Shown here: positions 6,410 through 60,510 of the stretch, piece by piece
Layout of the letters: each line of letters begins with the position of its first letter
Numbering within the stretch: position 1 is the first letter of the stretch
Assembly: GCA_963514005.1 (NCBI GenBank)
Contig: OY740814.1
Location: 14,570,001-14,634,000 of the forward strand
Direction of reading: 5' to 3'
Source: Raja brachyura
Lineage: Eukaryota
Length of the DNA: 64,000 nucleotides
Made by a program: the position numbers and the translations under genes
Notes under the pieces: model-generated
Database searches by the model: none
What the model was told of the DNA's origin: nothing
What the model saw: only the letters and a program-made list of their open reading frames with translations

Positions 6410-8140
6410 GTTTGGAGAAAACAGGCCCTTTGGCCCACTATGTCTGCACCGATCATGATACCAATATAACTCAGCCCATCTGCCTGCCTGCTATATTTCT
6501 CCATTCCCTGTCCGTTTCTGTGTCGATTTAAATGCCTCTAAAATGTTGCTATTATATCTGGTTCTATCACCTCGTCTGACAGCCCATTCCTGGCATTTAC
6601 AACTCTCTGTGTAAAAAATTTGCCTCGCCCATCTCCTCTGAACTTTCCCCCTTTTTTTAATGTTGATGTTATGCCCTCTACCCTGGGAGAAAGACTAACT
6701 ATCTTATCCATGCTTCTCATATTTATTTAAACCTATATCAAGTCACCCCTCAGCCACCAACAGTCCAGAGCAAACACTCCAATGTTATCCAACCACTCCT
6801 TCAGCTAATGCTCTCCAATCCAGCCAACATCCTGGTATGCCTTTTCTGCACCCTCTCCAAAGCCTCCAAATCCTTCCTATAGTGTGGTGACAAAAACTGC
6901 ACAAGATACTCTGTATGCAGCCTAACCAACATTTTATATAGAGGAGGCTCTCGACTAGGATCTCCTCCATATCCCATGCTTCTCCTTGCCCCTTTCGTAA
7001 CAAGGACAGAGTCCCCCTTGTCCTCACTTTCCACCCCATCAGCATATAATCCTCCAACACTTTCGCCACATCCAACGGGATCCCACTACTGGCCACTTCT
7101 TCCCATCTTCATCCCTTTCTGTTTTCCGCAGAGACTGTTCCCTCTGCAACTCCCTGTTCAACTCGTCCCTTCTTAACCAAACCACCCCCTCCCCAGGTAC
7201 TTTCCACTGCAACCGCAGGAGATGCAACACCTGTCCCTTTACCTCCCCCCTCGACACCATCCAAGGACCCCGACTGTCTTTTCAGGAGAGGTAGAGGTTC
7301 ACTTGCACCTCCTCCAAACTCATCTACTGTATCCACTGTTCCAGATGTTAACTTCTGTTCATCGGCGAGACCAAGCAGGTTAGGTGATAGTTTCGCTGAA
7401 CACCTCCACTCAGTCCGCCTTAACCTACCAGATCTCTCGGTTGGTCAGCACTTTAACTCCCCCTCCCATTCCCAATCTGACCTTTCTGTCCTGGGCCTCC
7501 TCCATTGTTAGAGTGAGGCCCAGCGCAAATTTGAGGAACAGCACCTCTTATTTTGCTTGGGTAGCTTACACCCCAGCGGTATGAACATTGAATTCTCTAA
7601 CTTCAAATAGCCCTAGCTTTCCCTCTCTCTCCATCCCCTCCCACTGCCCAGTTTTCCCATCAGTCTGACTGTCTCCGACTACATTCTATCTCTGTCCCAT
7701 CCACTACCCTGACATCAGTCTGAAAAGGGTCTCAACCCTAAACATCACCCATTCCTTCTCTTTAGGGATGCTGCTTGTCTTGCTGAGCTACTCCTGCATT
7801 TAGTGTCTATCCAAAATTTTATATAGCTGCAACATGACTTCCCGACTTTATACTCAGTGCCCCAACCAATGAAGACAAGCATGCCTTCTTTACTATTTTC
7901 AGGCAGCTATGATCTTACACCCAAGATCTATTTGTACATCATTACTTCAATTAAACCTGCCATTTACTGTATACCTTTTCCTTACATTTGATCTGCCAAG
8001 GTGTAACACCTCACATATCGGATCAAACCCTATCTGCAATTTCTCTGCCCAAATATCCAACTGGTCTATATCATGCTGCATCCTTTGACAACTTTTCCCA
8101 CTAACCATCCTCCACCAATTTCAGCTTCATCTGCAAACTT
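6410..8140 (-). mobile_element. CR1 fragment interrupted by a Penelope-like element
   Basis: LYKMLVRLHTEYLVQFLSPHYRKD and FFTQRVVNA; CR1 sequence resumes after 7826. Confidence 0.8.
6942..7810 (+). mobile_element. Penelope-like element, 3' part (decayed GIY-YIG endonuclease plus terminal repeat with degenerate hammerhead)
   Basis: Encodes LIYCIHCSRC*LLFIGETK...FAEHLHSV (GIY-YIG); degenerate hammerhead ctgaaaagggtctcaaccctaaacatc at ~7720; 16-bp TSD ccaa(c/a)attttatatag at 6926-6941 and 7811-7826. Confidence 0.9.
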
Positions 8141-8141
8141 A

Positions 8142-8506
8142 TGCCCCTGCACCACTTAAGAAACCTGAACGGAAACCCCTGGAGACTTTGCGCCCCACCC
8201 AAGGTTTCCGTGCAGTTCCCGAAGGTTTTTGTCAGTCTCCCTAATGGTCGAAAGTGGTTTCCGCTTCTTCTATGTTCCGGCGATTATTTCAAAAAATTCA
8301 AAACCGGCCGCGACTAAAAATAGGTTGCTGTTTTAAAAATCGGTCATTTTTTAGTCAAAGCCGGTTGCGATGCTAGTTGAAGGTGGTTGCTGGAGGTTGC
8401 AGGTAGTGGAAGGTAAGACCTTTTTTTCACCCAGTTTTATTCCACCAGGGAGGTCTTACCTTCCACTACCTGCAACCTACGGCAACCACCTTCAACTAGC
8501 ATCGCA
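8142..8506. mobile_element. Truncated Harbinger-like MITE with internal 56-bp inverted repeat
   Basis: Starts tgcccctgcaccact after TTA, resembling the termini of the other MITEs here; inverted repeat 8366-8421 / 8451-8506; right TIR not found. Confidence 0.6.
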
Positions 8507-10327
8507 TAGAAGGCAGAAGAGGCCAATTCACTAAATGAATTTAAAAGAGAGTTAAATAGAGCTCATGAGGCTAGCGGAATCAAGGCATATGGCTGATTGT
8601 AGATTATCAGCCATGATCACAATGAATGGCGGTGCTCCTGCACCTATTTTCTATGTTTCTATGTATGCAGTAAATGCTAATAATCTAGACATGCAACTGC
8701 CCATTTCTCAATATGTTCAGCAGATGACACTTCTTTATCACAGTCAGTCATTCCAGCCCTTACTGCCATCACGTAATAGATTGCATCCAGAAGTCAGCCA
8801 GCATGGTCCAGTGGTAGTAAATTGTGAAATGCATGAAAAACAATGTCTGGAAGATGAATAGAGCATTCTTAATGTTCAGTTTCTTCGAGTGAAGCTTTTC
8901 CTTCTGGTTACTTCCTGCCATGCAATGATTTATACATGACAGACTAAAGCCCATTATCAAATGAGGTCGATATAATGAGGGAATGCTATTGTGTCTGTGA
9001 GCAGGCACAATATGGGGATGGGACACACACACACACAGTAACTCGTATTAAAACTTAGCATCTTTTGGTCAGGCACTTTAACCAGGAGGAGAGAAGAGTT
9101 GTACATGTAGATAGGATGAACAGGTCAGGTCTGTGCATGTCGTAATGGATAACTAAACAAACTGCTTAAACAAAGAGGGAAGCTTTTCTCACTGGATTCT
9201 CAAAATAAAACAAATAGAAATAAATCAAAAGAAGAAATAAACCTCAGCATCTAATAACATTAAAAATAAATCTAGCATTACATTAATGTACAATTAAAAA
9301 AAACCTTCCAAACTCTAACTTCTTGTGGTGATCACGTATTTGGGCTTGGATTGGACGCTTTGAGGCATGCCTACTGAAAGTGGCCGACTCACTCCACATC
9401 AGGCTGGAGCTATCGGAAGCTGACTCAAAATGATTGTTTTATACCACTGGTTGCAACATTTCTCCTAACTAACAAGGTCTTTTCTTTGAGTGCAACTATT
9501 CCTCTCCCTCAAAAGCAATAGACGAATTGCTGGTATCATGCACATTTTCAAGCGATTTCTCCAAGTATCTTTGAGTTTTGTAATATGACGTGACCATGGA
9601 ACCTAGTTCTCATTAATGACTTGTTCCAAGGAAGTTCCAGCTCATAGCATCTAATGTTGTAGTGCAGTGATGCCCCATAGCTCCCGGCCAAGGGGAATGT
9701 GAATGATTCTTCGTGGCTCCAGTGATCAAAGGGATCCGGTGAAGCTGCACATTTATCAAGGAGTTATGAAATTTGGAAAACAAAGAACTCCGACATCAAT
9801 TTGTTTTCATCCATTTCAATCCTTTTATCACTCAGGCAAGATCAGGATAATTGTAAAAAATTCTAGATGTGAAATAAGTTCAGTATGATACAGGGGATCA
9901 TGGTCCAGGAGCACAGGCTAGAAGGGAGGTCGAGGCAGATTCAACAACAACTTTAGTGAAATATAGGTTACATTGGGAGGTTCTGAGGGACCAAAACTAA
10001 TGAGAGCATATTTTCAAAACCCACCAGAAAGATTCTCTGGAATGCTTCCATTCCAATCAACCTGCAAAGTTAATTTGAAAATGCCATCTCTGCCTCAGTT
10101 CCCCCGCGTTGGTGCATCTCTGCCAATGATCTGCTGGGTCTCTGGTGAATGGTGCTCATCTCTCAACTGCTTCTGCTACATTTATATATTTATGTTTTTT
10201 TTTTAAACAAGAATCTGCTTCAATCAGGAGTGAAAATCCAAGATAATTCGAATCAAGGGAACCCAAGTGTGAATCTAACACATCGGATTGCTGGTGAGGT
10301 GCTGTATATATACATATCTTCCCATCA

Positions 10328-10543
<216 letters not shown>

Positions 10544-11310: not shown

Positions 11311-11750
11311 GGTCAAAGTCAGCACATTTCTGGGAAAGATGCACATTTTGTGTCTTTAGCATTGGTAACCTATTGACTCGATATTACAAAGCAGTTTAGG
11401 AAATGCCATGTCATACGGTATTATAGAAAACCACATCCACAGGAGTCTCTGCTTTTGACACCAAGGACACTTGCAGGTATAATAAAGGCATTTCAGTGTA
11501 CACCACAGGACTGAAGAATCAGCTCATGAATCCCTGAGGAAACTCAGTGCAATAAAATGGACAAGGGGCAAGTGAGGGCAGTTAGTGTGAGAAATTCAAA
11601 AAATGCAATCATACCAAGACTGCAGACTCAGCACCTGTCACACAGCTCCAAGCAGAGATGAAACACAGAGCATCGAGGTAACAGCCTCATTGAGATAAGA
11701 GAGAAACAAGTGACTGCAGCAGCTTCAGTACACTGTGTAACATAAAGTAA

Positions 11751-12206
11751 AAGGCCTGTCCCACTTGGCTGTCATTTGCGCTTCATTTACGGGTTATATG
11801 TAAAATAGGCCGACGTGTCGTGATGCGCGACGTCGCGCGCAAATCACGCGTCTGTTGCGCGTGACATCATTAGAATACCCTGCGGCGTGTGGCGACGCAT
11901 GGTTACGGACGTCGACGTAGCCATGTGTCACCACACGATACACGTGAGATGTCGGGACGCCAGCGTGAAACGCCAATGCGTCAGCGCGCGTACACGATAC
12001 GACACGCGGATGCCACGCGAGGTTTTAGTTACACTACAAAATCCTGGAGCGCCGCACGATATCGCGCATCACCGCATGTGATTCCACGCCTCACCATGCG
12101 CAATGCGTGCGTCACCCACGCGCACTCCACGTGTCATGACGCGTCGACCTATTTTACATATGACGCGTAAATGAGGCGCAAATGACGGCCAAGTGGGACA
12201 GGCCCT
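11751..12206. mobile_element. PIF/Harbinger-type MITE, CpG-rich, 456 bp
   Basis: ~40-bp imperfect TIRs A(A/G)GGCCTGTCCCACTTGGC(T/C)GTCATTTGCGC; TAA TSD at 11748-11750 and 12207-12209. Confidence 0.9.
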
Positions 12207-14589
12207 TAAGGCCCTTTTGCTCAAACAGCATGTGCTGGTGCTAATACTTTAGCTGCTCTCTCAATGGTGCTTTATGGTCACGTGAAGAGAATGGGCTAAT
12301 TAGGGATAGCCAGTATGGCTCAGTACATGACAGGTCATGTCTCACTAACTTGATTGAGTTTTTTTGAGGAGATAGCAAAGGAGATTGATGAAGATAGGGT
12401 GGTGGATGTTTTATATATGGATTTTAGTTAGGCTTTTGATAAGTTCTCTCATGGTAAGCTGATGCAGTAGCTTAAGATGTACAGGATTTATGATGACTTA
12501 GTCATTGTCAGTCACACTGTGATGCCCTGCACAGCTGGGTATTTTGCTTGCAATTATTCCCAAGGCACACACTTGGGTGGCTGCCCAAGAATATTCACCT
12601 TCTCTGGAACTGTACAACAGTGGCAGAGTCAATGTCTTCAGGAGAAGGGGGACAAAGAAAACAAATTGAGAAAAATAATAATTTTCTTATGCAAAACTTT
12701 TGCCACAACACAAGTACACTTATTAGACCAACTACTCATAAACAGAGTTCCTGAATTAGAGCATCTTCCTGTTTAACTATCCCCCACTGAGATACAATTT
12801 TGCTGAACCACTCAATGTTCACTGCCATTGCAAATTTTAAGCAATAAAAGCAATGTTGTAGGATTGTGAATGCTGTAGATTACAAATATTTTACGACTTT
12901 AAAAGAACTTATTCCACAAACTTTATTTTAGTTAATCAGGTTCCAGCCTTGAAGCCACATATAACCCTTCTAAGCCTTTTGATCAAACACAAATATCGAC
13001 CTCAGACCACTCATTTGGCAGATTAAGCCCTGAGTCAATTAGAGACTCTTCTTGTTTTAAGTTGCACATGACAGGGGTTCTATAGCAGCATAGCAAATCC
13101 TCCTTCAGATGACTTCTTTGATGGTATAGCTTGGCTTTTTAATGGACTAGGAATTAATCATATTAATCTATATTCAATCAATATTTAATTACTGTGCATA
13201 AAAACTTTATGAAGTTGGGCAAATAAACTATTTGGGGAAAAAAGTTGGGTAATCATTAGAAACTTATAATTAAACTTGCTAACAAGCTTAGCACTTATTT
13301 CAGGTACAGTGCCATGGGAATACAATCTAACTTTTCAGAAAAAAAATCAAAGAGATAAGCCTACATGGTGCCAATGTAACATCTCGTTAGTTAGAAACAC
13401 TGCTTAGGAATAGGGTTACATCATTACTGCTTCATCCTCCGACACATAAACAGTGCTCATGTTCTCCAATGCCAGACACCCTTAAAATGTAGAGAATCAA
13501 GAGAAAGCAGCGTTTAGGGAAGGGAGAACAGCTTGGAGTCACACTTTCAGAGTCATTACTGACACGTTCCTGCAGGTGATGAGCCAGGGACAGTCACAAG
13601 GACACAGATGCTTTGTGTTTGGTCAGTATCTTGCTCTATTGCTGAGCTGTCTTCTCAGGCACCAGGCAATACAGGAAATCAGCCTCGGCAAGCAGCCCAG
13701 AAATGTAGAGAACGGATAACTGATGCATTATTCTACAGTATCAACACTTTGATCTTGTATACTATTGAACTGCAACCACAGCATGACAATGTTTCCTAAC
13801 CATAATACATCACAAGGATCTGCCAATGTACTGAGGTTCTTACCACAGTAGGTGTGTGTCCATTGGCACAGTGGTCTATATGAACAAAATGGGAGCAGAC
13901 TCCATGCATGTTACACTGACTTCTTGGCAGAAATCACAATACTTTTCATATTAAAATCATGTAAGCCCATGTCAGGTTTACTTGATCTGAGAGTTAGCCT
14001 AATGTAGTCAAACAAAAATTAACATTCCTGTCAGTAGTCACTGACAGAAGAAAGAAAAACTACAAGGAACTGCAACCAATTCATTATGGCATGAACTGCT
14101 GGGTCTCAGCAGTCGTTCAGAAACCATAACAGGTGGGATGCACTATAATGAAGCCCTCCAGCAGTTCCAGGATTACTGATAACTGATGATACCATGCAAC
14201 GCTGCTACCCAAAGAGGCCTAAACATGGAGGAACAAACTGTCTCCATGAAGCCAGAGTAGGGACATGCAATGATCAAAGGGATCAGATATGAGGATCTCA
14301 GAGATCTACCAGAATTTTCAAATCCCTTCAGTACGGCAAGTTATCCTGCTGGCTCTACTGGCTACTCTATCAGGAAGACTGGTGAATCTTACACATACTC
14401 CAATTAACCTGTTTGTGGATATGTGCTTCCACGTCCCTTTAAGGAAATTTACTGTGTACAGGGATAGCTCAAAGCAGTCTTAGTGACACACTGCTATCTT
14501 CCTTGTGTCACATTATAAACTCATTGGGGATTGGGGGGAATACTTCTCAAGTTTGCCCTGCAAAAACCTCTTGAAGCTTGGGTGCAAGG

Positions 14590-16020: not shown

Positions 16021-17867
16021 GTGTTTACAGAGTACTATGTTTACTTAGCTGTTGTGCTCCTGCAAATAAGAATTTCATTGACATTTGATCTCTTGGTCAT
16101 GTCAAAGCTTCAACAGTCAAAACTTAAATGGAATTATAGGGAATATACACTGACCAAGAGAGTAAGTCTTGATCCACCAATTTACCAATCACGATGGTCT
16201 AAATCAAATTCACCAAGTGATCTCCACCGCATGCCCTTGAAACTCGCCAGGCCCCACTTGCTATGCTCCTCTGAAACTTGCCTGGGCCCCAGGGTCCATG
16301 CTCCACTGAAAGTCTCCAGGGTTTCACTGCCCAGAAACTCATCAGGTTTTCTGGGAAATTTATTACATTACTACATAGTATCTAAAAAAGTGAAAGTGTG
16401 CTGGGAAATTCATAAAAATAACATAAAAATAGTTCACAAAATGTGACATTTTGGCAGCAGTCCAGAGTATGCTGGAATATCAGAGAATGCACATGGTAAG
16501 AGTCACTGGGAAATACAGAAGAATTACACTGTGGGATATGTATAGAAGATTTACAGCAAGAGATTTACAAGGAGTGCACGCTATGAAAAGTGGGGTATAT
16601 GGAGGAAATAGAGGAGTTATATGAAGATGGCATCAGAGGATTTTAAACAACTAATAATGGTATAGAGAGATTAAGATTGGTATATTTAAGAGATTTGCAC
16701 CAAAAATAACGTGAGATACAAATGACAGAAATAGTCAGAGAATAGAGAGATGTTTGTACTATATATAGACAATATGTCAAAAGACAGCAAGAGTGACAAT
16801 GAGAATTTATGGCCAAATATTCTGGTTTATCTAACAGTTAAGAACAAATCACATTGGTTGGTTACAACCTCAACTATACCCACAAGTCATGGGATAACAT
16901 AACATGAAATCATTCATGACATTCCATTCCACCTTTTGGTTATTACAGCTTTCAAACACGACCTGAAATGTGCACGTGGAAATCCCCACTGTCAACCTGA
17001 TGATGAAGGTCGTTCATTTGATTTTTGATACTACATTTCATTTTACACTAAATCTGCCACTGAACTGCAGGACCACATTGTTTACTGCGAATTACATTTT
17101 CCTTTCCACCACCAGGAGTCTATTAGTTAAAACACCAATGCGTTTCATAAAACTGTCATATATACTGAGCCTGAAAGAAGGATCGACCTCCTGGTCAGTA
17201 TTATTTAATCTTGAAGAAATGCTGCTCAGAGGTATTGTTGAAGTTTGTAATGTTGGATTTGATAGCATACTTGAATGAAGCTTTAATATCACATTCTGTT
17301 CTTTACTAAGCTCACTTCCAGCATTCTAATCATTTACCACCTTGGGAAACTATAGAAAAAGTAGTGGAATGGGCTAATTAAACATCTCTTCAAAGAGTTA
17401 GCCAGATGTCCTGATTCTGTGCTGCAAGATTTTATCCAATTCCTGTAAAACTATAAATATGACAACTTTTTTACATAATGTAAAAAAATAAATTATATTC
17501 TTGATACTGCAAGTGCAAAGAAAGCCTATTCAGCCCCGAGGAAATGATAGAGATTTGGTCTGTTGATACCAGTGAATGCAGGTTCAAATCTACCATTTCT
17601 TACACAATGGACTTTGAGACTCAGGCTCGCTATGCTCTTGACATCAGAGATTTTGTTACAAAGTGAAGAGTCACTTACTAAAATGCACAAAAAATAGAAT
17701 GCTGGTGAAAGTCATAAGGTTGTCTATAATTTTCCTCCACATATGCTGCGTGCCCTACTGAGTTCCCCAGCACGGTTTTTGCACCAGATTCCAGTATCTG
17801 CAGTTTCATGTGTCTCTACTTATTAAAATGATTTCAGTATTGTGTTCATGTAGTCTTCAGTAAGTCA

Positions 17868-18584: not shown

Positions 18585-19877
18585 ACTTAGGATCAGGCTT
18601 GGACCTCCGTTGTTTGTATTATTCGGCAATGATTTGAATGAAAATGCAGGTGGTGTGATTTGTAAGTTTTCAGATGAAACAAAAAATTGAGGCTAATGGG
18701 GAAGGTTTTCAAAGTTCACAGCACAATTTAGATCAATTGGATATTTGGGCAGGGAAATGGCAGTTAGAGAATAATCAGGGCAAGAGAGGCGTTGTATTTT
18801 GGCAAGTCAAATGTACGAAGAAAGTATATGGTTATTGGCAGGAGCCTTCAGAGCATTGATGTATGCGGGGATCTTGGAGTTCAAACCCATGGCTCCCTCT
18901 AAATGGCAACACAAGTGGATGGGGTAATGAAGGCATACGGCATGCTTGCCTTCATTGGTCAGGACAAAGAATATAAACATTTGTAAGTCACATAATATAA
19001 AACATTTTGGTTAGGCCCCTTTTGGAGTATTGCACACAGTTCTGAAGAATGTGGAGGCTTTGGATAGGGTGCAGGCCTTTCACCCCAACTAGTCCATGCC
19101 AGCAAACATGCCCCATCTACACTAGTCCCAACCACCGGCGCTTGGCACAAAACCCTCTGAACCTATCCTATCCATGTACTCATTCAAATGTCTCTTGAAC
19201 GTTAAGATAGTACCTGCTTCAACTACCTCCTCCAGCAGCTCGTTCCACATACCCATCACCTTTTGTGCAAAAACGTTATCCCTCAGTTTCCTAGTAAATC
19301 ATTCTCCCCTCACCTTAAATCCATGACCTCTAGTTCTCGATTCCCCTTCTCTGGGCAAAAGGCTGTGCATTTACCCGATCTATTCCCCTCATAACATTGT
19401 ACACCTTTATAAGATCCGTCATCCTCCTGTGCTCCAAGGAATAACGTCCTAGCTTGCTCAACCTCTCCCTATAGCTCAGACCCTCGAGTCCTGGCAACAT
19501 CCTCGTAAATCTTCTCTGTACCCTTTCCAGCTTATTAGCCACGCAGAGAAGTTGAATAAAGTTGGACTCTGGACCATGAGAGGTTTATAAAAATTGTAAT
19601 ACTAGAGGGCACAGGTTTACGGTTCGAGGGAGAAAGTTTAAAGGAGACGCGTAGGGCAAGTTTTTCTTTAAACACGAGAGTGCCTCGAATCCTCTGCTAG
19701 GGGAGTGGTGGTAGCAGATATTATAACACCAGGCTTTTAGACAAACACATGAACAGGCAGAAAGTAAGATATGGACTATGTGCAGGCAGACGGGATTAGA
19801 TAGATTGGCATCATGGTTAGCGCCGACGTGCTGGACCAAAGGGCCTGTTCTATGCTGCACTTATCTATATGTCACAA
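18585..19877. mobile_element. Plus-strand CR1 fragment with a nested minus-strand CR1 3' end (~19072-19533)
   Basis: NDLNENAGGVICKFSDETK on plus; KLERVQRRFTRMLPGLEGLSY on minus; plus-strand 3' UTR at ~19780-19870. Confidence 0.8.
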
Positions 19878-19892
19878 AACATCCTCGTAAAT

Positions 19893-20097
19893 CTGGAGAA
19901 ACTCAGCGGGTGCAGCAGCATCTAAGGAGCGAAGGAGATAGGCGACGTTTCGGGTCGAGACCCTTCTTCAGACTGAAGAAGGGTCTCGACCCGAAACGTC
20001 GCCTATCTCCTTCGCTCCTTAGATGCTGCTGCACCCGCTGAGTTTCTCCAGCCTTTTGTGTAACCCTCGATTCTCCAGCATCTGCAGTTCCTTCTTT
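19893..20097. mobile_element. Short palindromic Penelope-derived element with back-to-back hammerhead cores
   Basis: Perfect inverted repeat 19893-19971 / 19973-20051 (79-bp arms, 1-nt spacer); 17-bp direct repeat AACATCCTCGTAAATCT at 19878-19894 and 20098-20114. Confidence 0.9.
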
Positions 20098-23000
20098 AAC
20101 ATCCTCGTAAATCTTCTCTGTACCCTTTCCAGCTTATTAGCCACGCAGAGAAGTTGAATAAAGTTGGACTCTGGACCATGAGAATCAAAACTATATCTTA
20201 CTAACTTCTTCTTGGAACCCTGTGACCCCCAGTTGATTAAAAAAAACTGATAACTGATAACTGAAAAAACTGAGTGTCCTCTGAGTGAACACATCTGTGA
20301 CGACAGAGAAATATCAGGAAACCAGCCAATGGTTCCTTCTGCACCTAAACAATGTGTCGTGTCCCTCTGGTATAAACAGATTCTCCAAGTGTTAATAACA
20401 GTGGGAATATCATTGTACCCATTGGCATTGTTATATTTAAATGCTCTGGGGTGAAGTTCTGCAAGCCCTTGAGATCCTGGCAGACAAACAAAACCCAGTG
20501 GGAATTCACAGCACAGCTCGAAGTAAATGTGCTGGGAGACTACTGTACGTGCTGCCTGATACCAACAATCCAATAACAATGGCACAAGGCTTGAACAACT
20601 GAGACCTCATTTACATTTCATCTTTCCATATATTATGTGCACTTAGAAGTTTCTATGCTTCCACTATGTGAAGTGCCTGTGCTTAAATGAACAGCTCTGT
20701 GGCAATCAGATATATATACACAAATTTAACTCTCCCAGAAAAAAAAAATATTCAAAACATTTCCTATCCTTTATTGCTACTGAAAAATGTTCATGTCAAA
20801 GGTTCTGTGACTGGAAGGTCAAGTGGGGTTCCATTCCAAGACGTTACCAATGCCTCTGTTGAAGGCATCCTTGATTACACTTAACATGTACATAACATGT
20901 TAATGTCTTAATGACAGCACAAAAGAAGTGGGGTTTCAAGTATGAAAAGTCTTAATGTGAATTTCTACCATACCAATTTATTAAGTATTTTACATCACTT
21001 GAGTTGAGTATGTCTTGTTAAAAAAACAATTATAATATAAAAAAGTGCATCCTTATCATTCTGTATTGCAAGTTACTCAAACCGCTGAAGCTCTCACAAC
21101 AAATAAAAACTGATAAATCGTATTTTAACTTTTGACCCATAACTCAACAATTCACTCAAAACTCCTGTTTATGGTCCTGCACCCAGGAGAGCAAACATTC
21201 AGCAAATGACAGCTTTCTTCATGGCAGTACACCGCCTGCCATTGGTCCTAACCTTGGCTTTTAATAGATAGTACATACATCACTGGAGTCAGGAAATAAT
21301 GTTCAGGATTAACCTTTTCAAAGTGACATAAACCTTATGTACCTCTACAACATTTCCTGTCTTTTTCAGGATTTAGTGTTCAAGTTGCTAAAACTATTCC
21401 TCATCACTCATTTTTGTGACAGTTGTACTTGGTCTTGTGGGACTTCTGTATATCACTTCCAAGACAGGAATGTTTCCCTTGTGCCTTGTTGACCAGAAAT
21501 GATCATATTATTCAAGGTGCAATGTGGCCAGAGCATTCCACAGCTCCAGCACAATAGCCCAATAAAACATTGTTTGCTTTGTTCCTGTCGATTGATGACT
21601 GGATAATACTGTTGCCTCTAATCTCTTTCTTAGCTACTGTAGCAATGTTCACTGAATGCCCATTTTGCCTTTTATAGCTTAACACCCTGAACTTATTTAT
21701 CACCAATGTCATCCGTTGTACTTCTGCTCATTTGAAAATATTGTTGGGAAATTATTGCATGGAATCTTCTTCCCATTCTATGGCATTTTATCCATAAAAG
21801 GGATGTGAGTGCCATTAGCAAGGCCAACATTTATTGCCGATTCCCAACATGAGAAGGTGATGTTGCCCACTGGCATATGCGATGAAAGTGCTCCCACAGT
21901 GCAGTTGGGAAGGGAGTTCCAAGATGTTCAGGATTTATATGTAAATGCATTCCTTTAGTGCAAGTATAGAATACAGCAAAAACAAATACATCACTGATAC
22001 CAGTAACAGCATTAAAAGTTAGTAAGTAGATGACAAAACTGGCATTTTGTCTAATTAAGTCCTTGGAACCCTCTGCCCCACACCATTGATAATATTTCTA
22101 TATTTAATATTATGCTTTTTTGAGGAATGTGGCGTTAAATAGAACAGATGGAGGAGATCATAATATAAATCTGTGAGGAGCAAGTTTCTTCGAGTTACAT
22201 TAACAGAGCAAATGGTAAGGTGTTAGGTGATTTATTTTATTTCTGTACCATGAATCTGAAAATACTGTTGATCGTGAATGCTATACTCAGAATACGTGGC
22301 ATTTTATCTACAGCAGGTACAATTAAATAATGCGCAATGCATTTACTTAAGGGTCCTGACATGTTTCAAGTCAAAAAGCAGACCATGCTCCTTGTACACT
22401 TGCCACCTTAATTTTAATGTTTTTGCCATTATAAAATAAGTAATAAGGTTTTTCCAGAATTTTAAAGGCTAATATTATTTTTTAATGTTAAAATGTAATT
22501 TTCCCCACACATTTTGAGCGTATTTTCATTTTCACTTTTTGGGGGACATTAGACATTATTAATGAGGAAATAGTCTTGACATTTGTAGCCATGGCCTGCG
22601 TACTGGCAGCCTACAGAATCCGGGGATAGTTTCATTGCGTAATATGCCGGACAGCATCTGGACTGTAATCAGGGATTCCATCAGATATAATGGATCAGAT
22701 TTTAAAATTCATCATAAAAGGCATTAGATGATACGTCTGTACCCTGATACTGTTAGTGTATAGATTTGAAATAATTTATAGTTTGGATCAGGCCAAATTC
22801 ATTCTCCTTTCACAAGGACGTGGATAATCTCATCATCAAGGGGATCTGTGAGTAGAACAATATGCAGCTTTGGAAGTGATGAAGAGCATTGTAGATTTAA
22901 TTTTCTTATATATCATTTCAGTTGATTTTAGTCCCCTTGGATGAGAGAATTCGCCACCAAGACACGAGACAATTTTGCTTGTGTCACTCAGCATTTACAG

Positions 23001-26087: not shown

Positions 26088-26114
26088 GGCTTTCCTATTG
26101 GCTTGTAAATTACT

Positions 26115-26245
26115 GTGTTAAAGAAGGAACTGCAGATGCTGGAGAATCGAGGGTTACACAAAAAAGCTGGAGAAACTCAGCGGGTGCAGCAGCATCTAAG
26201 GAGCGAAGGAGATAGGCAACGTTTCGGGTCGAGACCCTTCTTCAG
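26115..26245 (-). mobile_element. Short Penelope-derived element with hammerhead core
   Basis: Near-identical to the 19.9-kb and 36.9-kb copies; 15-bp TSD GGCTTGTAAATTACT at 26100-26114 and 26245-26259; core on minus at 26218-26245. Confidence 0.9.
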
Positions 26246-27459
26246 GCTTGTAAATTACTTTCCTCAGGTGGCTACCCATTTCCCTACCGATGAATGTTTC
26301 CTCTACCTATATAAACAGGCCGTTTTACTCCACACGCACACACATGTTGTATCTTTCATGCTTCCCTATGTAAATGCAAGCTTCCAGGCTGAGCCAACTA
26401 GAACAATCTCTCTCTATTTAGACCATCACAATCTTGAACATCCAGTCAAATCTCTTCCCTACTGTCCTTGCTCAAAGGAAAACTGCAGCTTCTCCAGTCT
26501 ATTCCTGGAACCATACTTGTGCATCTTCTTTAGGACCTTCACAATCTTTATCAAGTATAGCAACGATAATTTGGATGGAACACTCCAGTTGTGGCCCGCA
26601 AATCTGTTGCAATAATTCAAGCTGACCACTGCTTTTGTATTTTTGATATACCAATGAAGATCTAGCTTCCATATATTTTATTAAAGCACATGGATATGGA
26701 GAGCATGTACACTTGTTGGAGAATCTAGTACCTGGGGGGTACTGTTTAAAAATAAGGGACTCCTATTTAACACAGAGATAAGGCATCTTTGCTTTCAGAG
26801 GGTGGGGGTTAAGGTTTTTTTTTTAAAATCATGAAAATGACTTCCTCAAAAGACACGGAAGCAAACAATGTGAATAATTTTAAGGCAGCAGTAGATAGAT
26901 TCTAGATAAGCTTGGTAGTGGAAGGTAAGCAGTAATGGAGAGCTGAGTTTATAATCAGATCCGCCATGATGTTGGTTAATGGTGAGGAGTCTCGAAGACT
27001 GTAGCCAATTGTGCTCTAATTTCTACATTCATGTGTAGCAGCTTTGTATATATCCTTCTTCCCAGAGCTACCTTTTATTATGTGTTGGGAGTTCAAAATT
27101 CAAGAGGGAGAATCCAAGATATACACTTCTTAACAGGACTAACAAACTTGTAATAAGATGTGGTTGAATAATACCAAACTGCTATTTTTGTTTCATATCA
27201 TAATACATACTATTGCTGTGGCAGAATATGTTTTACTGCTCTCTATGACCTTTCAGGAAGCTGTATCAGATGTCTACGGTATTTTCAAAACATCAATGGA
27301 AATGCCATTCCAAAGCATGACAATGGAATGGTATGTTAAAGAGCTGAATTGCATTTCTAGTTTTGTGATTAGTAGGAAAGTAAAATAACGTGGAATAAAA
27401 ATAATACATCAATATCAGAGTTGTACTCCAAAGTGGTAACCAAAGAATATTGAACTTTA

Positions 27460-33594: not shown

Positions 33595-33775
33595 GACATA
33601 GCGATGGAGTGGCTCAGCAGGTTAGGCAGCATCTTAGGAAAACATGGATAGATGACATCTTGGGTCAGGACTCCTCTTCAGACTGTTGTAGTGTTTGATG
33701 CTGTTTGACCCGCAGAGCTACTCCAGCACTTTGTGTATGTTGTAAACCAGCACCTGTAGTTCCTTGTTTTCACGT
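33595..33775. mobile_element. Degenerate palindromic Penelope-derived element
   Basis: ggagtggctcagcagg...cctcttcagac followed by inverted gatgctg...ctccagcactttgtgt...gttcctt. Confidence 0.6.
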
Positions 33776-37040: not shown

Positions 37041-37079
37041 CTGTTTATTTATTGTATCTTTGTGGGACATATCTTCGGA

Positions 37080-38575: not shown

Positions 38576-39605
38576 AGATCTAGCAGGGTATTTCAGCTGA
38601 CTGACTGAGGCGCTATAGGGACTGAAGTCAAGTCAAGTCAAGTTTATTCGTCACATACACATACGGGATGTGCAGTGAAATGAAAAGTAAGGAAAAATGT
38701 ATTTACTCAGATGTAATGGACATGTTTGAAGGAAACATTATCAGCTGAAAATATCAAGGATTAAGATTACCTTGTGTATTTTATCAGTAAAACCCTTCTG
38801 CCTGTTGAAGTTGAAGTCAGATATGGTTGTTCAGGCCGTAAACAAGCAGGACTGCTATGTGAAATATGGGGCCATAATCCCACTGAAACACCATCTTTCT
38901 TTACTCTTCATTGCAACCCAAGGTCTTAACAATAGTAGATTGAAAGCCGTCTTAGGTCTCCACGAGTGCTTAGATCAATACCAGAAAGTGACTGATAGAC
39001 CTGGCCATGAAACCAACAGGCGCAGAGAGGGAAAGGGAATCTCCATGTGTGTTGGATGCTAGGGCCTAATGAGTGCAGAAGCAACCAATCAATCATTTCT
39101 ATGCATCTGGATTTATAGACAGATGAAGGGTAACGCATTAATCATTGGTAAAACTGTACTGTCTTGCCCAAGTTTGCACAAAGTAAGGATGATCCCGGTA
39201 TCACAATTGAGAGAGGATTCCGAGAACACTGCTGGGGCAGGATGGAGGATTGACAGACCTGTGTGCAGGTTAAACAGAATTCTTGTGTAGACCTCAATCA
39301 GACTCTGTTGAGATTGATTATTAAAATCCACAAAAGCGGGTGATGAACCTTTGGAGTGCCCTATCCCAGAGGGCTGTGGTGGCTCAATCACTGGGTTCAT
39401 TTAAAACAGAGACCAGAAGATTTCTGGCCATTTAGGAAATAAAGGAATATAGAAATACTGTTGGAAAATGGCACTTGGGTAGAAGATCAACCATGATCTT
39501 ATGAACGGTGGAGCAGATGGTCAACTCCTGTTTCTTATGGTCATTCTGAGCTTCTATGTGCTCCTGATAAATGGTTTTCAACCCCAACCGAAATGCTCCA
39601 TTTTC

Positions 39606-39721
39606 TTAAAGAAGGAACTGCAGATGCTGGAAAATCAAAGGTACACAAAAGTGCTGGAGAAACTCAGCATCTACGGAGCGAAGGAAATAGGCAACGTTTT
39701 GGGCCGAAACCCTTCTTCAGA
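39606..39721 (-). mobile_element. Short Penelope-derived element, hammerhead core mutated (GAAA to AAAA)
   Basis: Same family; direct repeat CCATTTTCTT at 39598-39607 and 39722-39731. Confidence 0.8.
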
Positions 39722-40639
39722 CCATTTTCTTCATGAGCCTAAGATTTCCAGCTGTCAGTGCAAATGTTGTTGATTTTTAAAAAGGCCTCAAGCACACCCT
39801 TGAATCTTTTCCCTTGTCTACCTAGTGATCTCTTTCAATGCCAGAGGTTTAAAATAGAAAGTTTATTTCAGGAGTCTGGTGTCAGACAAGTGAATAATAT
39901 GTTCTGTCCAGCAGAGTCAATTGAGTGTAATCAGGATTTCAGTCCTGGGGATTATTGGCCTGTGAAAGAATGCTAATGTAGATTTGTTTATTCTTTCAAT
40001 AGGTTTGTAAGTTTTTTCTTTGCATTGGTAGTATTTTGGTGGTTTCCTATCTTGCCCTCGTAGATTACCAGTTCCTGACAAGGCCCTGGAAAACACTGAC
40101 CACAGCGCATACCTCAGGAACCATCTAGTATCCGAGGTAGACATTGATGAAGGAATACATTATCACCTTTAGTGAACCAGCACAGCGTTTGGATACCTGC
40201 GGAAAAGAATGCTTGATGAGCAGGACCTGAAGCCTAGCATAAAACACACTGACTACTGAGTAGTTGTGACCCTGTCCATTTAGCTTTTGTTATAGACCAC
40301 CAATAACTAGCACCTCAAGGCACTAGAGAAAAATCAAGAATAATCACTGTTTAGCTGTTACTGTAAGATTTGTATCTCAATTACATTAAATTCTAATTGA
40401 GGATCAGGAATTTGGTCAGGAACAGCTTTCACAGACGTTCTACAAAGCAATACATTACATTTTTAAAGATAGTTTTCTCTGTATCTGTCCTCCCTCCAGC
40501 AAAAACAGAAGGCTCCCCAAAGACAACTGAAACAGCAAATAGATTATTTCTGTTAGTGTAAAAATGGATTTGATTTGATTTACGCCAAACGGATATCATT
40601 GTTAATATTCTCATAACTACGATAAAGCTAGTTATCATA

Positions 40640-41215
40640 GAGATTGGATAGTTTATATATTCTTGATGGCAGATGGTTGGACAAAAGCCAGAGATGAAAA
40701 GACAAAAGGATTGAAGAGTTGCAAATTGTGAAGCTAGAGGAAGTAATGTAAGTTTAAGGAAAGGGAGAAATTGGTGTGAGCCCAGATGGGTCACAAGGGA
40801 GGGGCAAAGAAAAGAGGTGTGTAGGGGAAGAAAGGGGGGGGGGGGTTTAGTTACCTAGAATTGGGGAATTCAATGTTCAGACCAATGGCTACCCAAGCGG
40901 ACCATGAGGTTCTGTTTCTCCATTTTTAGTGTGGCCTCACACAGGCAATGGAGGGGGCCCTGAACAGAAAAGTCAGCATGGGAATGGGAAGAGGTGTGAA
41001 ATGGTTAGCCACCAGGAGATCCAGAGGGCCTTGGCAGACCATGCGCAAGAGTTCGGCGAAACAGGTGCTGAGTCTACGCTTGGTATCCTGAATGTACAGG
41101 AGGCTATCTTGGGAATACTGGATGCAGTAGATGAGGTGCATGTGAACCTTTATCTCACCTAAAGGGCTATTTGGGGTCACTGGATGCAGGTGTGGGAGGA
41201 GGTCTGGGGATAGGA
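40640..41215 (-). mobile_element. Decayed Penelope-like element (GIY-YIG region)
   Basis: ORF 40926-41180: HLIYCIQYSQDSLLYIQDTKRRLSTCFAELLR...VANHF. Confidence 0.8.
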
Positions 41216-44091: not shown

Positions 44092-44780
44092 TCATAAGTT
44101 CATAAGTTATAGGAGCAGAATTAGGCCATTCAGCCCATCAAGTCTCTCCACCATTCAATCATGGCTGATTCACAGTCATCTGTTGTAATGAATTCCACAG
44201 TTTCACCACCCTATGACTAAAATAATTCCACCTCATCTCCTTTCTAAAGGTATGTCCTTTTATTTTGAGACTATGGCCCCCACACTACCTGCCTCTCCAC
44301 CTATCTTTGTATCATCTGCATACTTGGCCACAAAGCCTTCAATTCCCTCATCCAAATCAATGATATACATCGTGTAGAGTAGAGTCCCCTGCGGAACATT
44401 GTTACTTATTGGCAGCCAACCAGAAAAAGCCCCCATTTATTGCCACTCCTTGCCTTCTGCCATTCAGCCAACCTGCTGTCCATGCTAGTATCTTCCCTTT
44501 TATACCATGGGCTTTCATCTTTTTTAGCAGCATCAAAGGCCTTCTGAAAAGCCAGGTAAAGCACATCCACTGATCAGTCTGAAGAAGGGTCTCGACCCAA
44601 AACGTCACCCATTCCTTCTCTCCAGAGATGCTGCCTGACCCGATGACTCCAGCAATTTGTGTCCACTGACTCTCCTTTGTCTATCCTATTATTTATTTCC
44701 TAAAAGAATTCCAACAGATTCATCAGGCAAGATCTCCCTTTCACAAAACAATGCTGACATTGTCCTATTTTATCATGTTT
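44092..44780 (-). mobile_element. Internally deleted CR1 fragment carrying a Penelope-terminus insert (~44574-44661)
   Basis: cataagtt-repeat tail; RT motifs; insert ctgaagaagggtctcgacccaaaacgtc flanked by TCCACTGA repeats. Confidence 0.75.
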
Positions 44781-49439: not shown

Positions 49440-51600
49440 TGGTAACATAAGATGGCTTTAGTTCTGTACAGGGTTCTTTTGGAAGTGCATATACAACCTT
49501 GATAAAGGGCCTGTCCCACTGCGGCGACCTAATTGGCGAGTTTAGAAGAGTTTAGGGGAGTTTGAAAAAGTGTCATGTTGAAGACCTCCTTCGACTATGT
49601 TGAAGACTAGCTTCGGGAAAATTGGAAAACGAATAGTGGAGAGTGAAGACGACCTCCTTCGATCACCTTCGACCTCCCTTCAACTATGTTGAAGACTATC
49701 TATGACTACATTTGACTATCCTCGATTACCTACGAATACCATGCCGACCTACTACGACCTACTCAGGCTAAACCTACGAGTAAAAACAAATAGCGATTTT
49801 TTCCATGGCGACCTTTTTTTACTTGCGGGCATTTTTCAGCATGTTGCAAAATACGCCGTGGCCTAGCTGAGGCCTCGAGTACGTGGGGACTTCTCTCGAG
49901 CATGAAGGAGAGTTAGAAAGACCTTCTAGGACCTCGTGTCGACCATGCTGTGAGTATGAGTCGAGGGCAAACTCTTCTGAACTCGGGGATTAAGTCGCCG
50001 CAGTGGGACAGGCCCTTAAGGCTGTCAGAAAAGCAAAGAGACACTTACAGTCTAAATTGATGGATGAGACAGACGTTCAGCAGCTGTGGCAGGGCTTACA
50101 TTCCATCATTTCCTACCAGGCAAACCCAATTTGTATCTCAAGTGACAGCAAGGCATCACACCTGAATGCCCTCAATGTTTTCTATGCTCAGTTTGAAAGG
50201 GAGAAGATCGATGTACCTCCTCATGCCAAGTAGCCCTGGTGACACTGTAATCTCAATCACCATGGCTGATGTTAGAAGATCCTCATCAGGGTGAACCCTC
50301 GGAAAGCATCTGGCTCTGATGCGAGTACCTGGCCACATTCTTAAAACCTGCACGGACCAACTAGCTGGACACCTTCAACCGCTCATTACTAAGGTCTGAC
50401 GTTCCAACCAGCTTTAAAAGGATATCAATAATACTGGTCCCCAAAAATAATAAGGTGACATGCCTCAATGACTGCGACCAGTGACACTAACATCCTTGGT
50501 GATTTGAGAGGGTGGTTATGAGGCATACGAACTCCTGCATTAGTAAGGACCTGGACCCAATTGACTTATTGCTGTTGTTTATCGACTACAACGTTCAACA
50601 TCATCATCCCCTCGAAACCTATCTTCAAACTCAGAGAACTTGGTCTCTGTTCATCCATATGTAATTGGATCTTCAATTTCCTTATCGGCAGATCACAATC
50701 AGTATGAATTGCCATCAATATTTCCTCCTCGATAATGATTATCACGGGAGCGCCTCAAGGCTGTGTGCTCAGTTCCCTGTTCTACTATCTCTATACCCAT
50801 GGCTGCATAGCCAGATACAGTTCCAACAACCATCTTTCAATTCATTCACAATACCATGGTTGTTGGATGGATAACAGTTAACGATGAATCAAACAGGAGA
50901 TAATAGGAGGGAAAATGAATATATTTTTGAATGGTGCTAGAACAACAATTTTGCTTCAATGTGAGCAAGATGAAGGAGTTTATTATTGACTTCAGGAAGG
51001 GAAAGCCAGGAATGCACAATCCTGTCTTCATCCACGGGGCGGCGTTGGAGAGAGTCAATAGCTTCAAATTCCTGGGCATTCATATCGCTGAACATCTGTC
51101 CTGGGCCCAGCACATTGATGCAATTACAAAGAAAACTCATCAATGCCTCTCCTTCCTTAGAAGATTGATGGGATTCAGCATGGCAATGAATACTCTATCA
51201 AACGTCTTTAAGTGTATGATAGAGAACATAGTGACTAATTAAGTCACCACCTGGTTCAGCAACTTAAATGCCCATCGTCTTCACCTCCCCACCAGCGAAG
51301 GGATCTATAGGAGGTGCTGCCTCAAGTAGGCAGCCATTATCATCAAAGATGCACACTCTAGTCACAATCTCATTTCGCTATTGCTACTGGGAAGAAGGTA
51401 CAAGAGCCTGAAAAATGTGACAACCAGTCTCAAGAGCAGCTTCTTCTTAACAACCATCAGGCTCTTGAACATTACACAACACTAACCTGAGCAACTATGA
51501 TCTTCTATGAACTGTGTCCTTGGTTGCACTACAGACTTTGGTCTTTACACTATTATGGTTACAGTTATTAATTTATTGAATTTTTAATTACAATATTATT
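49440..51600 (+). mobile_element. Rex1/Babar-type LINE, decayed RT to 3' end, interrupted by a MITE
   Basis: VQQLWQGL..I..Y, GAPQGCVLS, FNVSKMKEFIIDFRK, RVNSFKFLGIHIAEHLSW, GRRYKSLK. Confidence 0.85.
49506..50016. mobile_element. PIF/Harbinger-type MITE, 511 bp
   Basis: TIRs AGGGCCTGTCCCACTGCGGCGAC(C/T)TAAT; TAA TSD at 49503-49505 and 50017-50019. Confidence 0.9.
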
Positions 51601-56085: not shown

Positions 56086-56290
56086 TAGACACAAAATGCT
56101 AGAGTAACTCAGCGGGACAGGCAACATGTCTGGAGAGAAGGAATGGGTGACGTTTCAGGTGGAGACCCTTCTTCAGAGGAAACGTCACCTATTCTTTCTC
56201 TCCAAAGATGCTGCCTGTCCCCCTGAGTTACTCCAGCATTTTGTGTCTATCTTCAGTTAAAACCAGCATCTGCAGTTCCTTCCTACACAC
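56086..56290. mobile_element. Palindromic Penelope-derived element, second subfamily
   Basis: tagacacaaaatgctagagtaactcagc...cccttcttcaga followed by inverted gaaacgtcacc...ctccagcattttgtgtcta and gttccttcctacac terminus. Confidence 0.8.
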
Positions 56291-57696: not shown

Positions 57697-57886
57697 ACTT
57701 ACCGAAGCCAATTAACCTACAAACCTGTACACCTTTGGAATGTGGGTAGAAGCCAGATAACATGAGGAAAACCTACATGGTGACAGAGAGAACTTACAAG
57801 CTCCATACGGACAGCACCCGTAGTCAGAATCAAACCATGGTCTCTGGTGCCGTAAGGCAGCAACTCTACCATTGCGACACTGTGCC
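57697..57886 (-). mobile_element. V-SINE 5' part
   Basis: ggcacagtgtcgcaatggtagagttgctgccttacggcaccagagac head. Confidence 0.8.
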
Positions 57887-58499
57887 TCACATGCAACATT
57901 GGCCCTACCACATAAGCCCAACCCCTCACAGCCCATTCCTCCAATTTCCAGGCTACTGTACTTCCCTGTACCCATCTTTAATCTTCATCTTCCCTACACA
58001 AAATCCCCACGTTTCCCCTCAGCAACCTCTCGCTAGTCCAACTTTAACCCTATCCCTAATTTCTAACTTTCCTAACCCCAAATTCACTCTCTATCTAACT
58101 TTTAAAATATTTTGCTCAGATCTTTGCATTCAGTCACTCCTCAAATTTAGGGCAGTGAATTCTCCTATCCCTCCAATCCCCAATTCCATTTTGCCAAGCT
58201 CTTTTATTTGTGACTTACCAATTCTCAGACACCAGGTTCCATGATGTGCACTGAACCTCTAAGCGTGACTAGCTTATACTGCTGGTACTGAGTGGGGTCA
58301 AAAGGATTGAAGTTATTGTTTATCACGGAGGTTGTCAGATTGAACATAAGTGGATGCAATGAACCCTGCTCACTTTCTATTTGGAGAGTCTCCCTTCAGC
58401 TGACAGTGGGCATTTGGAGGTGCCATTTAGATAAATAATGAACAAGTTACCAAAAATAAGTATTTTAGGCATTAAATGAAAATAAGTTCATCAATGACT

Positions 58500-60510
58500 C
58501 ACCAGAGGAATTAAATATAGTATTAAATATCAAGGAACAAGGCTTATAAAATTCCAGAAACAGTAGGCCTAAGCATTAGGTGCATTTCAGAACTCAGCAA
58601 AGACTGGCCAAAGATTAGAAAAAGAAAAAATCAGAATACAAGAGTAGACTGGTGAAAAACAGATTAGGTACATTAAATGGAAATGACCAACAGGGGAATG
58701 TGTGCTACCCTGCAGAGACAGAATCATGGATATGACATGGCAGATGCATTAAACAACTCGTAATAGATGCATTAAACAACTCGGTCTGAAGAAGGGTTTC
58801 AGCCCAAAACGTTGCCTATTAATGCTGCCGCACCCGCTGAGTTTCTCCAGCAATTTTGTCTGCATTAAACAACTCTTTGACTATGGAAGAATGCTGCAAA
58901 GTTTGCTGGATATATGAGAGAATTGAGAGTCTAGTGGGAATGAGGAAATGAAATAACTAAGTAACAGTCAAAAAATAGCACTGGGAAAATTGGTGAGTTT
59001 GATAGCTGATGAATCCCAAGGAGCTGAGGATCTACATCTCAGTTTTGAATGAAGTGTCTTTAGAGAAAGTGGATGTTCTGGGTATCATCTTTCAAAGTTC
59101 TGTAGATTCTGGAGTGGTTTATGTGGTCTGGAGTGGAGCCAAATACTTAAGGAATAAAGTAGAGATAAAACAGGAGATAAAATAGGATAAAGCCTGTAAG
59201 CCTAATGTCAGTGGCTGGAATCTATAATGATGGGCATGATAACAGAAGAACTTAGAACAGAGAACAATACAGCATAGGAACAGGCCCATCAGCCCACACT
59301 TTGTGCCAAATATTATCCCAAGTTAAACTAATCTCCTCTGCCTGCATGTGATCCATATCTCTTAATTCCCTGCATATCTACGTGCCTATCTAAAAGCCTC
59401 TTAAAAGCCACTATCTTATCTGATTCCACTACCACTCCGGCAGCGTGTTACAGATACCTACCATGTTGTGCGTAAAAAAATATTTCCCTGCACGTCACCT
59501 TTAAACTTCCCCCCTCCCATCTTAAATCTATGTTCTCTCTTTATTGACATTTCCAGCCTGTGAAAAAGGTTCTGACTGTCTGCCCGATCTATGCCTCTCA
59601 ATTTTATATCCTTAAGAGCTAGTAGATAAGAAATACTTCTAGAAATGTCCCACATGGAGGATTGGTTAACCATGTTGGAGCATGTGAAATTGGGAATAAT
59701 GAGCTGACACAGACTAAGAAATGGCTACTGAACAGGAAGCAAAGAGTGGGAATAAACTGATACGTCACAAGCTGGTCAAGCAGTGACCAATGAGATACTG
59801 CAAGGTAGACAAAAGAGCTGGAGAAACTCAGCGGGTGCGGCAGCATCTATGGAGCGAGGGAAATAGGCAACGTTTCGGGCCAAAACCCTTCTTCAGACTT
59901 CTTTGGTCTGAAGAAGGGTTTTGGGCCGAAACGTTGCTATTTCCTTGACTCCATAGATGCTGCTGCACCCGCTGAGTTCCTCCAGCTCTTTTGTCTACCT
60001 TCGATTTTGCAGCATCTACAGTTCCTTCTTAAACATGAGATATTGCAAGTATTGATACTTAAGCTCTGGGTATTCATAATCATTCTCAACACATTGGCTG
60101 AGGGAATTAAATGTCACATTTCCAGGTTTGTTTTTGATACTAACTTTGGTGTAATTATGTATGCGGAGAAAGCTGTAAAGAGGCTTCAAGGGGTGTAGAC
60201 AGAGTGAATAGGCAAGAATGTGGCTGATAAAATATCATGTAAAAAATGTGAGCTCATCCACTTTGGTGAACAAAAATAAGAAAGCAAAATATTTGTTAAA
60301 TTATGAATTATTGGGTAGAATTAATATTTAGAAGGTATTATATGAGCACAATTTGTTGGTCAAATCGCAGGTACATTAAGAAATTTGAAAGACAAGTGGA
60401 AGTTATTCTTCATTATGAGATGGTTTGATTACTGAAAGACAGATGTCTTATTATACAGGATCTTGGTGAGAATGCACCTGGAGTATTGTGTATATGTTTG
60501 GTTTCCTTAC
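58500..60510 (+). mobile_element. Old CR1 with nested inserts (Penelope termini at 58784-58860 and 59805-60034; minus CR1 3' end ~59255-59610)
   Basis: Degenerate homology to 154-1918; SRFVFDT and LVRMHLEYCV motifs; boundaries approximate. Confidence 0.7.
59805..60034. mobile_element. Palindromic Penelope-derived element with two hammerhead cores
   Basis: Imperfect inverted repeat ~59802-60001; 15-bp TSD ATGAGATA(C/T)TGCAAG at 59790-59804 and 60035-60049. Confidence 0.85.

Follow-up and report, generated by a model that had tools for sequence, protein, structure and literature searches.

Short hammerhead-bearing copies of a Penelope-like element in Raja brachyura with 5' ends clustered just upstream of the ribozyme

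The 64-kb window analysed here (Raja brachyura, GCA_963514005.1, contig OY740814.1, positions 14,570,001 to 14,634,000 of the forward strand; GC content 41%), to which alone all counts of copies refer, contains an open reading frame (ORF)-bearing fragment of a Penelope-like element (PLE) and nine short loci of 78–230 bp that matched the end of this fragment (7714–7810) in blastn searches. The short loci consist of one or two arms derived from the pseudo-long terminal repeat (pLTR) of the element with its minimal hammerhead ribozyme motif, and the 5' ends of most arms lie within a few nucleotides upstream of the hammerhead, while none lies at the cleavage site. On balance, we lean towards the view that the short elements are products of target-primed reverse transcription off an RNA that would start just upstream of the hammerhead.

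Clustering of 5' ends at the hammerhead

Positions within arms were counted from C3 of the CUGA motif (position 0), the hammerhead cleavage site being at +28. An earlier note on this DNA had claimed homology to the Penelope terminus for short elements at nine places, and all nine were recovered by blastn and nhmmer (nhmmer E-values 3e-24 to 4e-42, and 3e-15 for one half-arm). A profile of the arms used with nhmmer added three older candidates at 17716–17809 (+; decayed and tail-bearing, E 6e-9), 29836–29914 (+; decayed, E 8e-11) and 62934–63026 (marginal, E 0.007), which were excluded from the endpoint counts as their ends could not be placed. The 5' end fell between −6 and 0 in 11 of the 14 arms of the nine short loci and was internal in the others (+20, +49 and +79). 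Every short locus had at least one arm in the −6 to 0 cluster, and not a single arm started or ended at +28. The proposal that single-arm copies end within a few bases of CUGA thus stands as far as the clustering is concerned, with the corrections that the end in question is the 5' end in the sense of the ORF and that two-armed copies cluster as well.

PLE insertions are typically heavily 5'-truncated (PMC8557442), and the clustering might in principle reflect ordinary random truncation combined with chance or an edge effect of the alignment. However, even under the most favourable geometric truncation model P was about 4e-11 at the level of loci, with a ×130 window correction applied, and at 26.1, 58.8 and 39.6 kb the boundary is placed by the target-site duplications (TSDs) without recourse to alignment. 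The endpoints are therefore not those of random 5' truncation, to which we assign a negligible probability.

Alternatively, the boundary could be a splice acceptor (CAG/TCTGA after a pyrimidine-rich tract), the copies being derived from spliced or mis-spliced RNA, and the sequence at 7690–7718 is indeed acceptor-like. An intron of the D. virilis element ends at hammerhead helix I (PMC4209133). Nevertheless, an upstream exon common to the copies is absent, with at most GG being shared, and no such joint was seen among 15 of the 316 joints from two public contig sets. A splice origin is accordingly regarded as highly improbable.

The parent element and its hammerhead

The copy at 6942–7810, described as coding in the earlier note, proved to be a broken, 5'-truncated fragment between 16-bp TSDs (6926–6941 and 7811–7826, with one mismatch). 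Its ORF remnant (7001–7610, +), which contains in-frame stops and a frameshift near 7376, covers the linker between reverse transcriptase (RT) and endonuclease (EN) with a CX4CxxC motif and the GIY-YIG domain with its CCHH motif, and lacks the RT. Two predicted proteins matched the window ORF query at 59% and 56% identity, and one of them, used as query in turn, retrieved 17 proteins, 12 of eukaryotic origin, 11 of these being named proteins of sharks and rays, and five from metagenome or read assemblies. The longer relatives of the ORF, with which the window fragment aligns, carry RT and GIY-YIG Pfam domains, and a Pfam search with the two broken ORF pieces themselves gave no matches. The C-terminal GIY-YIG endonuclease with CCHH, together with a pLTR bearing a hammerhead, an optional tail, an inverted copy and TSDs, is characteristic of EN-positive (EN+) PLEs, and the linker, CX4CxxC in P0001, conforms to the CX2-5CxxC pattern that marks Neptune or Nematis (PMC8557442). 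From the linker and the clades reported in vertebrates we infer that the remnant is the 3' part of a Neptune-type ORF and the parent element probably a Neptune rather than a Nematis. A second decayed PLE endonuclease fragment (40866–41214, −) is 66% identical to the first, and blastn and nhmmer searches of the window found no pLTR near it.

In the ORF-bearing copy the repeated module (7716–7810, +; tail-less, with a decayed minimal hammerhead) has its C3 at 7720, 110 nt past the stop codon, indicating that the module is the 3' pLTR. The same hammerhead motif was found about 110 nt past the EN domain in relatives from metagenome contigs, for which the best 80 of 359 related loci served as comparison. 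The C-terminal residues of a read-through shark protein prediction (P0006) fit a translation of this motif as well, and the peptide by itself suggests that the pLTR module may lie 3' of the ORF also in another shark. Three near-full-length relatives (L002, L005 and L012) carry the hammerhead just 5' of, or within, the start of the ORF, as does the Anolis element, suggesting that the transcription unit likewise begins with this module. The first ATG of L005 sits within the hammerhead core. The contigs of L005 and L012, with near-full-length Neptune-like ORFs, have overlapping ends (1–283/3838–4122 and 1–127/3828–3954, respectively), corresponding to a tandem or circular assembly.

Every full arm contained CUGAAGA followed by an additional A, then a stem II of 4 bp, the GAAA, a palindrome without a loop and finally a site reading GUC or GUU, that is, the CUGANGA/GAAA/UH core with stems I and II and a palindromic stem III of a minimal type I hammerhead, stem I comprising 2–3 bp in the window copies. 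Across 10 window arms and six relatives 90.1% of the cells were paired versus 77.0% after shuffling (0 of 500 shuffles) and 15–46% in slid controls, and changes on both sides of stems I and II were contributed mainly by the six relatives. Besides this covariation, the core was more conserved in the window than other positions (0.98 versus 0.84, CpG sites excluded, p = 0.0014). G12 was lost by CpG decay in five of 10 arms, which fits the expectation of neutral decay after insertion, and six arms folded as single strands scored no better than shuffles (z −1.07 to +1.19), as expected for a motif that requires a dimer. No hammerhead family was matched in Rfam, where all 16 hits, to microRNA-like or other hairpin models, were below the gathering score, and a search for the hammerhead pattern in viral, metagenome and prokaryote genome contigs gave no matches. 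Judged by its sequence, the motif of the short copies is the minimal PLE hammerhead of PMC4209133, with cleavage as a prediction. According to that source, such minimal hammerheads are mostly single and dispersed, and opposite-strand pairs 100–700 bp apart are read as truncated PLEs.

A hammerhead that is of type I and covarying would also suit the retrozyme-like origin proposed in the earlier note, in which the products of hammerhead cleavage, monomers or circles, undergo reverse transcription and insertion. Retrozymes have in fact been proposed to derive from PLE pLTRs, and monomers occur, also in one chondrichthyan (bioRxiv 10.64898/2026.07.22.740005). Yet retrozymes are tandem repeats that carry hammerheads of the canonical type I and are processed into monomers bounded by the cleavage sites and into circles (PMC7229834), whereas the window holds no tandem hammerhead array (four short arrays are unrelated) and its two-armed copies are inverted. 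Moreover, the 14 arms showed neither cleavage-site ends nor circular permutation, G12 has decayed in half of those scored, and the hammerhead is minimal with a zero-loop palindrome and not canonical with a real helix III. For the window copies a retrozyme-like origin is thus largely refuted, and we consider it very unlikely.

Arm anatomy, target sites and proposed mechanism

The 3' ends fell into two classes, one at +77 to +93 (seven arms, the ORF-bearing copy included) and one at +121 to +129 (seven arms), and were likewise bimodal in the metagenome relatives (+86 to +101 and +143 to +147). All five two-armed loci (19.9, 33.6, 36.9, 56.1 and 59.8 kb, the second arm being a correction to the earlier note for those at 33.6 and 36.9 kb) are head to head and consist of one tail arm and one tail-less arm (p = 0.03 if classes were chosen freely), and in all five the arms overlap in RNA coordinates, by 14–92 nt. 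Single-arm copies belong to either 3'-end class. An inverted pLTR and an optional tail of 30–40 bp are known for PLEs (PMC8557442; PMC3846280), and in vitro the tail of an Anolis PLE is set by two internal RT start sites (PMC11167929). In the latter study both strands were cut and extended, a dimer was predicted, ribozyme cleavage was dispensable and RNA ends at the cleavage site were not found. In the 36.9-kb tail arm (36893–37021, −), a predicted fold at +47 to +111 pairs the nearly invariant segment AGAUGCUG, which holds a conserved ATG, with the tail, and the tail-less end lies just past its inner stem (z −1.07 against shuffles). This fold may be an RT start structure.

The TSDs measured 15–17 bp at six of 10 loci (16, with one mismatch, 17, 15, 17, 15 and 15, again with one mismatch), reproducing the lengths reported earlier. 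The remaining four loci comprised 39.6 kb (10 bp), 44.6 kb (8 bp) and those at 33.6 and 56.1 kb, where the flanking-repeat search of the 10 loci found none, so that a fixed stagger describes most but not all copies. Scores of the six long TSDs were 12–17, the best among 150 random position pairs being 8, while the score of the 8-bp TSD at 44.6 kb was matched by two of 150 random pairs. The TSDs are 68% AT versus 59% for the window. A search of five two-ended related loci gave 14–16 bp at two, values within the null range at two and nothing at one, and 21 single-end searches in the relatives yielded one 11-bp match. Because TSDs of 16 bp (L009) and at least 14 bp (L041) thus occur in distant Neptune-like loci, the stagger is not peculiar to the window family, and the earlier idea of a 15–17-bp family signature had to be abandoned.

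Three copies are young, with pairwise identities of 123/127 to 125/127 between their arms, in line with the near-identity reported before. The 19.9-kb copy (19878–20114) has 17-bp TSDs (at 19878 and 20098) around a tail-less arm (19895–19972, −) and a tail arm (19973–20097, +) that are identical in 77 of 79 columns. The 26.1-kb copy (26100–26259, −; 15-bp TSDs at 26100 and 26245) is a single arm with tail that begins at CUGA, and the 36.9-kb copy (36876–37057, −; 17-bp TSDs at 36876 and 37041) combines its tail arm, starting at −3, with a tiny tail-less second arm of 13–15 bp (37028–37040, +). Between 52% and 76% of the sampled words of the young element at 36850–37080 were present in runs labelled with five different organisms, suggesting a subfamily that is recent yet shared. 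The other two-armed copies lie at 59790–60049 (15-bp TSDs with one mismatch; tail-less arm 59805–59899, −, a 5-nt filler, and tail arm 59905–60034, +), at 56086–56289 (tail-less arm 56086–56177, −, from −1; tail arm 56179–56289, +, truncated at +20) and at 33603–33772, an old copy with a tail-less arm (−) from −4 and a tail arm (+) 5'-truncated at about +49. The remaining single arms are a tail-bearing one at 39598–39731 (−; 12-nt internal deletion, 10-bp TSD) and tail-less ones at 44566–44669 (+; from about −5, its possible 8-bp TSD being within the null range) and 58768–58875 (+; from −3 or −2, with an internal deletion and 15-bp TSDs at 58768 and 58861).

A perfect 86-bp duplication (19496–19581 and 20098–20183) starts with the 17-bp TSD of the 19.9-kb copy, within what is presumably an old inverted LINE-like fragment. 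Its upstream copy, with the 17-mer once, looks like an empty target site, and the repeat may have arisen by recent local duplication, through a complex insertion or from merged haplotypes. A third copy of the 58.8-kb TSD lies at 58745, 23 bp upstream (58742–58783, where AGA, the TSD and G are repeated), so that the target is triplicated at two of the six long-TSD loci. Near-perfect long hairpins unmatched to the pLTR, at about 8355–8510 and at 36692–36832 (about 45 bp from the 36.9-kb insertion), gave sub-threshold microRNA hits in Rfam and may be fold-back insertions of another family or miniature inverted-repeat transposable elements (MITEs). Three MITE-like elements of about 460–510 bp with 49–74-bp inverted ends were located at 11750–12207, 28093–28552 and 49505–50017.

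According to the mechanism we favour, the GIY-YIG domain would nick both strands of AT-rich DNA, usually 15–17 nt apart as recorded by the TSDs, and reverse transcription would start within the RNA at about +90 relative to CUGA in tail-less arms or at about +125 in tail arms, the two sites being those marked by the bimodal 3' ends and their mode of action being borrowed from the Anolis PLE in vitro. Both nicks could prime, one per site, giving the head-to-head tail and tail-less arms that are observed, and failure of one arm would leave a single arm of either kind. The cDNAs would end at −6 to 0 as the template RNA would begin just 5' of the hammerhead. As template, the 5' pLTR in the element's own transcript is the most likely candidate; a transcript starting there would have the RT start sites 90–125 nt from its 5' end, and the products would be run-off cDNAs of the 'strong-stop' kind. 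The ribozyme would merely be carried along, without cleavage setting the ends. The D. virilis element is transcribed from an internal promoter, with the start within its upstream pLTR (PMC2377424).

Two comparisons speak for this reading, with reservations. The inverted arms of the metagenome relatives have 5' ends at −483, −429, −422, −289, −255, −222, −175, −163 and −127, with three others at about −24 to −59 and one at −3, and the resulting contrast in near-CUGA starts (11 of 14 window arms versus 1 of 13, Fisher p = 0.0003) favours the reading, although it is not like for like, as the control loci were picked for an RT ORF. Among the listed loose contig ends on 6900–7860 in the two public contig sets (12 of 1850 rows), the largest pile was at 7725 (1362 and 202 contigs) and read TCAGTCTGAAG, preceded by letters unlike the element body; the reference copy, however, has a 1-nt deletion at 7725, and the pile may include subfamilies with other 3' untranslated regions. 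Several points weigh against the reading. Contig sets cannot show transcript starts, two raw-read runs gave no reads on 6900–7860, and the RNA 5' end is deduced from the copies. The match of TCAGTCT to the initiator (Inr) consensus is weak, with an 8% chance of arising within seven positions, and the G carried at −3 by four young arms could be a copy of the cap but completes a templated stem I equally well. In D. virilis the start site is followed by an intron that ends right next to the hammerhead (PMC4209133; PMC2377424). Finally, the strict asymmetry of the arms is left unexplained by PMC11167929, in which the RT start site was equal on both strands in vitro.

A doubtful but possible alternative is a SINE-like (short interspersed element-like) non-autonomous family with an internal promoter, the short copies being transcribed themselves and mobilised again in trans; with RT starting internally, they would not depend on their flanks. 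The window accords with this in its three near-identical young copies within 64 kb, none of whose arms reaches the element body, and in lacking a young ORF-bearing copy; furthermore, there are precedents for non-autonomous PLEs (MRC1; PMC8557442), and a pLTR sequence is sufficient in trans (PMC3846280). Conversely, the ATG frame is open through the tail in four of seven tail arms (19.9, 36.9, 56.1 and 59.8 kb; broken at 26.1, 33.6 and 39.6 kb) and linker lengths step by 3 nt (19/22/25, with one homopolymer slip), which together hint at coding masters. A profile search for the N-terminus encoded by this frame found no such protein, its sole match being a repetitive low-complexity protein. The ORF 3' sequence was also about as deep as the pLTR in both contig sets, suggesting that long copies are common too.

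Somewhat less probable still is a long RNA read from the 3' pLTR, the cDNA of which would stop or snap back on meeting the TCAG(T)CTGA palindrome or a hammerhead bound by protein, the hairpin then being extended or resolved. The palindromic junction at 19.9 kb and the overlapping palindrome at 44.6 kb would agree with this, as would the rotifer PLE palindromes at inverted junctions, read as self-priming (PMC3846280), and the protein-assisted ribozyme (PMC11167929). A folded ribozyme should, however, stall RT at its 3' edge at about +30, where no end was found; the young arms have GGT and not CAGT upstream, the 59.8-kb filler is non-palindromic, and four single-arm copies are joined straight to the target.

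Extending the target-primed mechanism, we can imagine, as a speculation that is more probably wrong than right by a wide measure, a 90–130-nt Pol II mini-retroelement still spreading in sharks or rays, in which the PLE promoter is combined with the minimal hammerhead and a pair of RT start sites. The PLE protein, as a dimer, would prime one site per nick, possibly on two RNAs joined by the palindromic stem III, the role of the ribozyme would be to dimerise RNA and not to cut it, and every insertion would preserve the position of the RNA 5' end. The short copies bear on the PLE transposition cycle after priming and on the purpose of the hammerhead. Nine short loci in this one window correspond to about 140 per Mb, and if this density is typical, they amount to a very extensive archive in which each insertion preserves both cDNA ends, and which would allow tests of the RNA start, the RT start site used at each nick and the relevance of cleavage. 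Fold-back copies can be hit by microRNA-like hairpin models of Rfam, as that at 59.8 kb was, and could be mis-annotated as MITEs or microRNAs.

Comparison with known systems

The hammerhead of the window copies resembles the minimal hammerheads of Cervera and de la Pena (2014; PMC4209133) in its type I core, the extra base between 9 and 10.1, the G10.1–C11.1 pair and the palindromic 15.2–16.2 without loop 3, although its stems II (4 bp) and I (2–3 bp) are shorter than those of the S. mansoni motifs. With animal non-LTR (non-long terminal repeat) retrozymes (PMC7229834; bioRxiv 10.64898/2026.07.22.740005) the copies share a non-coding nature, a type I hammerhead, a relation to PLEs and TSDs longer than 4 bp. 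Retrozymes, however, form head-to-tail arrays of 150–450-bp units with canonical hammerheads and circles, whereas the window copies occur scattered as single or inverted units, their hammerhead is minimal and their ends bear no relation to the cleavage site.

In twin priming of L1 both nicks prime and an inversion results, the two arms covering non-overlapping RNA, and retroviral minus-strand strong-stop DNA is a short run-off cDNA primed inside the RNA near its 5' end. The window copies resemble the former in the inversion from both nicks and the latter in the short run-off cDNA; unlike L1 products, their arms overlap in 5/5 copies, so that two templates or strand displacement would be needed.

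The closest likeness is to EN+ PLEs of the Neptune clade (PMC8557442; PMC3846280; PMC11167929), with which the window elements have in common the GIY-YIG domain with CCHH, the CX2-5CxxC linker, the pLTR hammerhead, the head-to-head inverted copy, the tail at one end only, AT-rich targets and TSDs; solo pLTRs, 5' palindromes and an Inr-like motif are also known in rotifer PLEs (PMC3846280). In the accessible literature, with most subscription papers, Repbase and Dfam outside reach, no paper was found that describes the shark copies or a clustering of 5' ends next to the hammerhead. The window differs from other EN+ PLEs in that most insertions contain nothing beyond the pLTR, with or without the tail, and have 5' ends clustering within 7 nt, and its TSDs of 15–17 bp compare with 8–10 bp in A. 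vaga and 14–16 bp at related metagenome loci. The copies thus represent largely known PLE behaviour, the variant feature being 5' ends that lie just before the ribozyme and not at its cut site.

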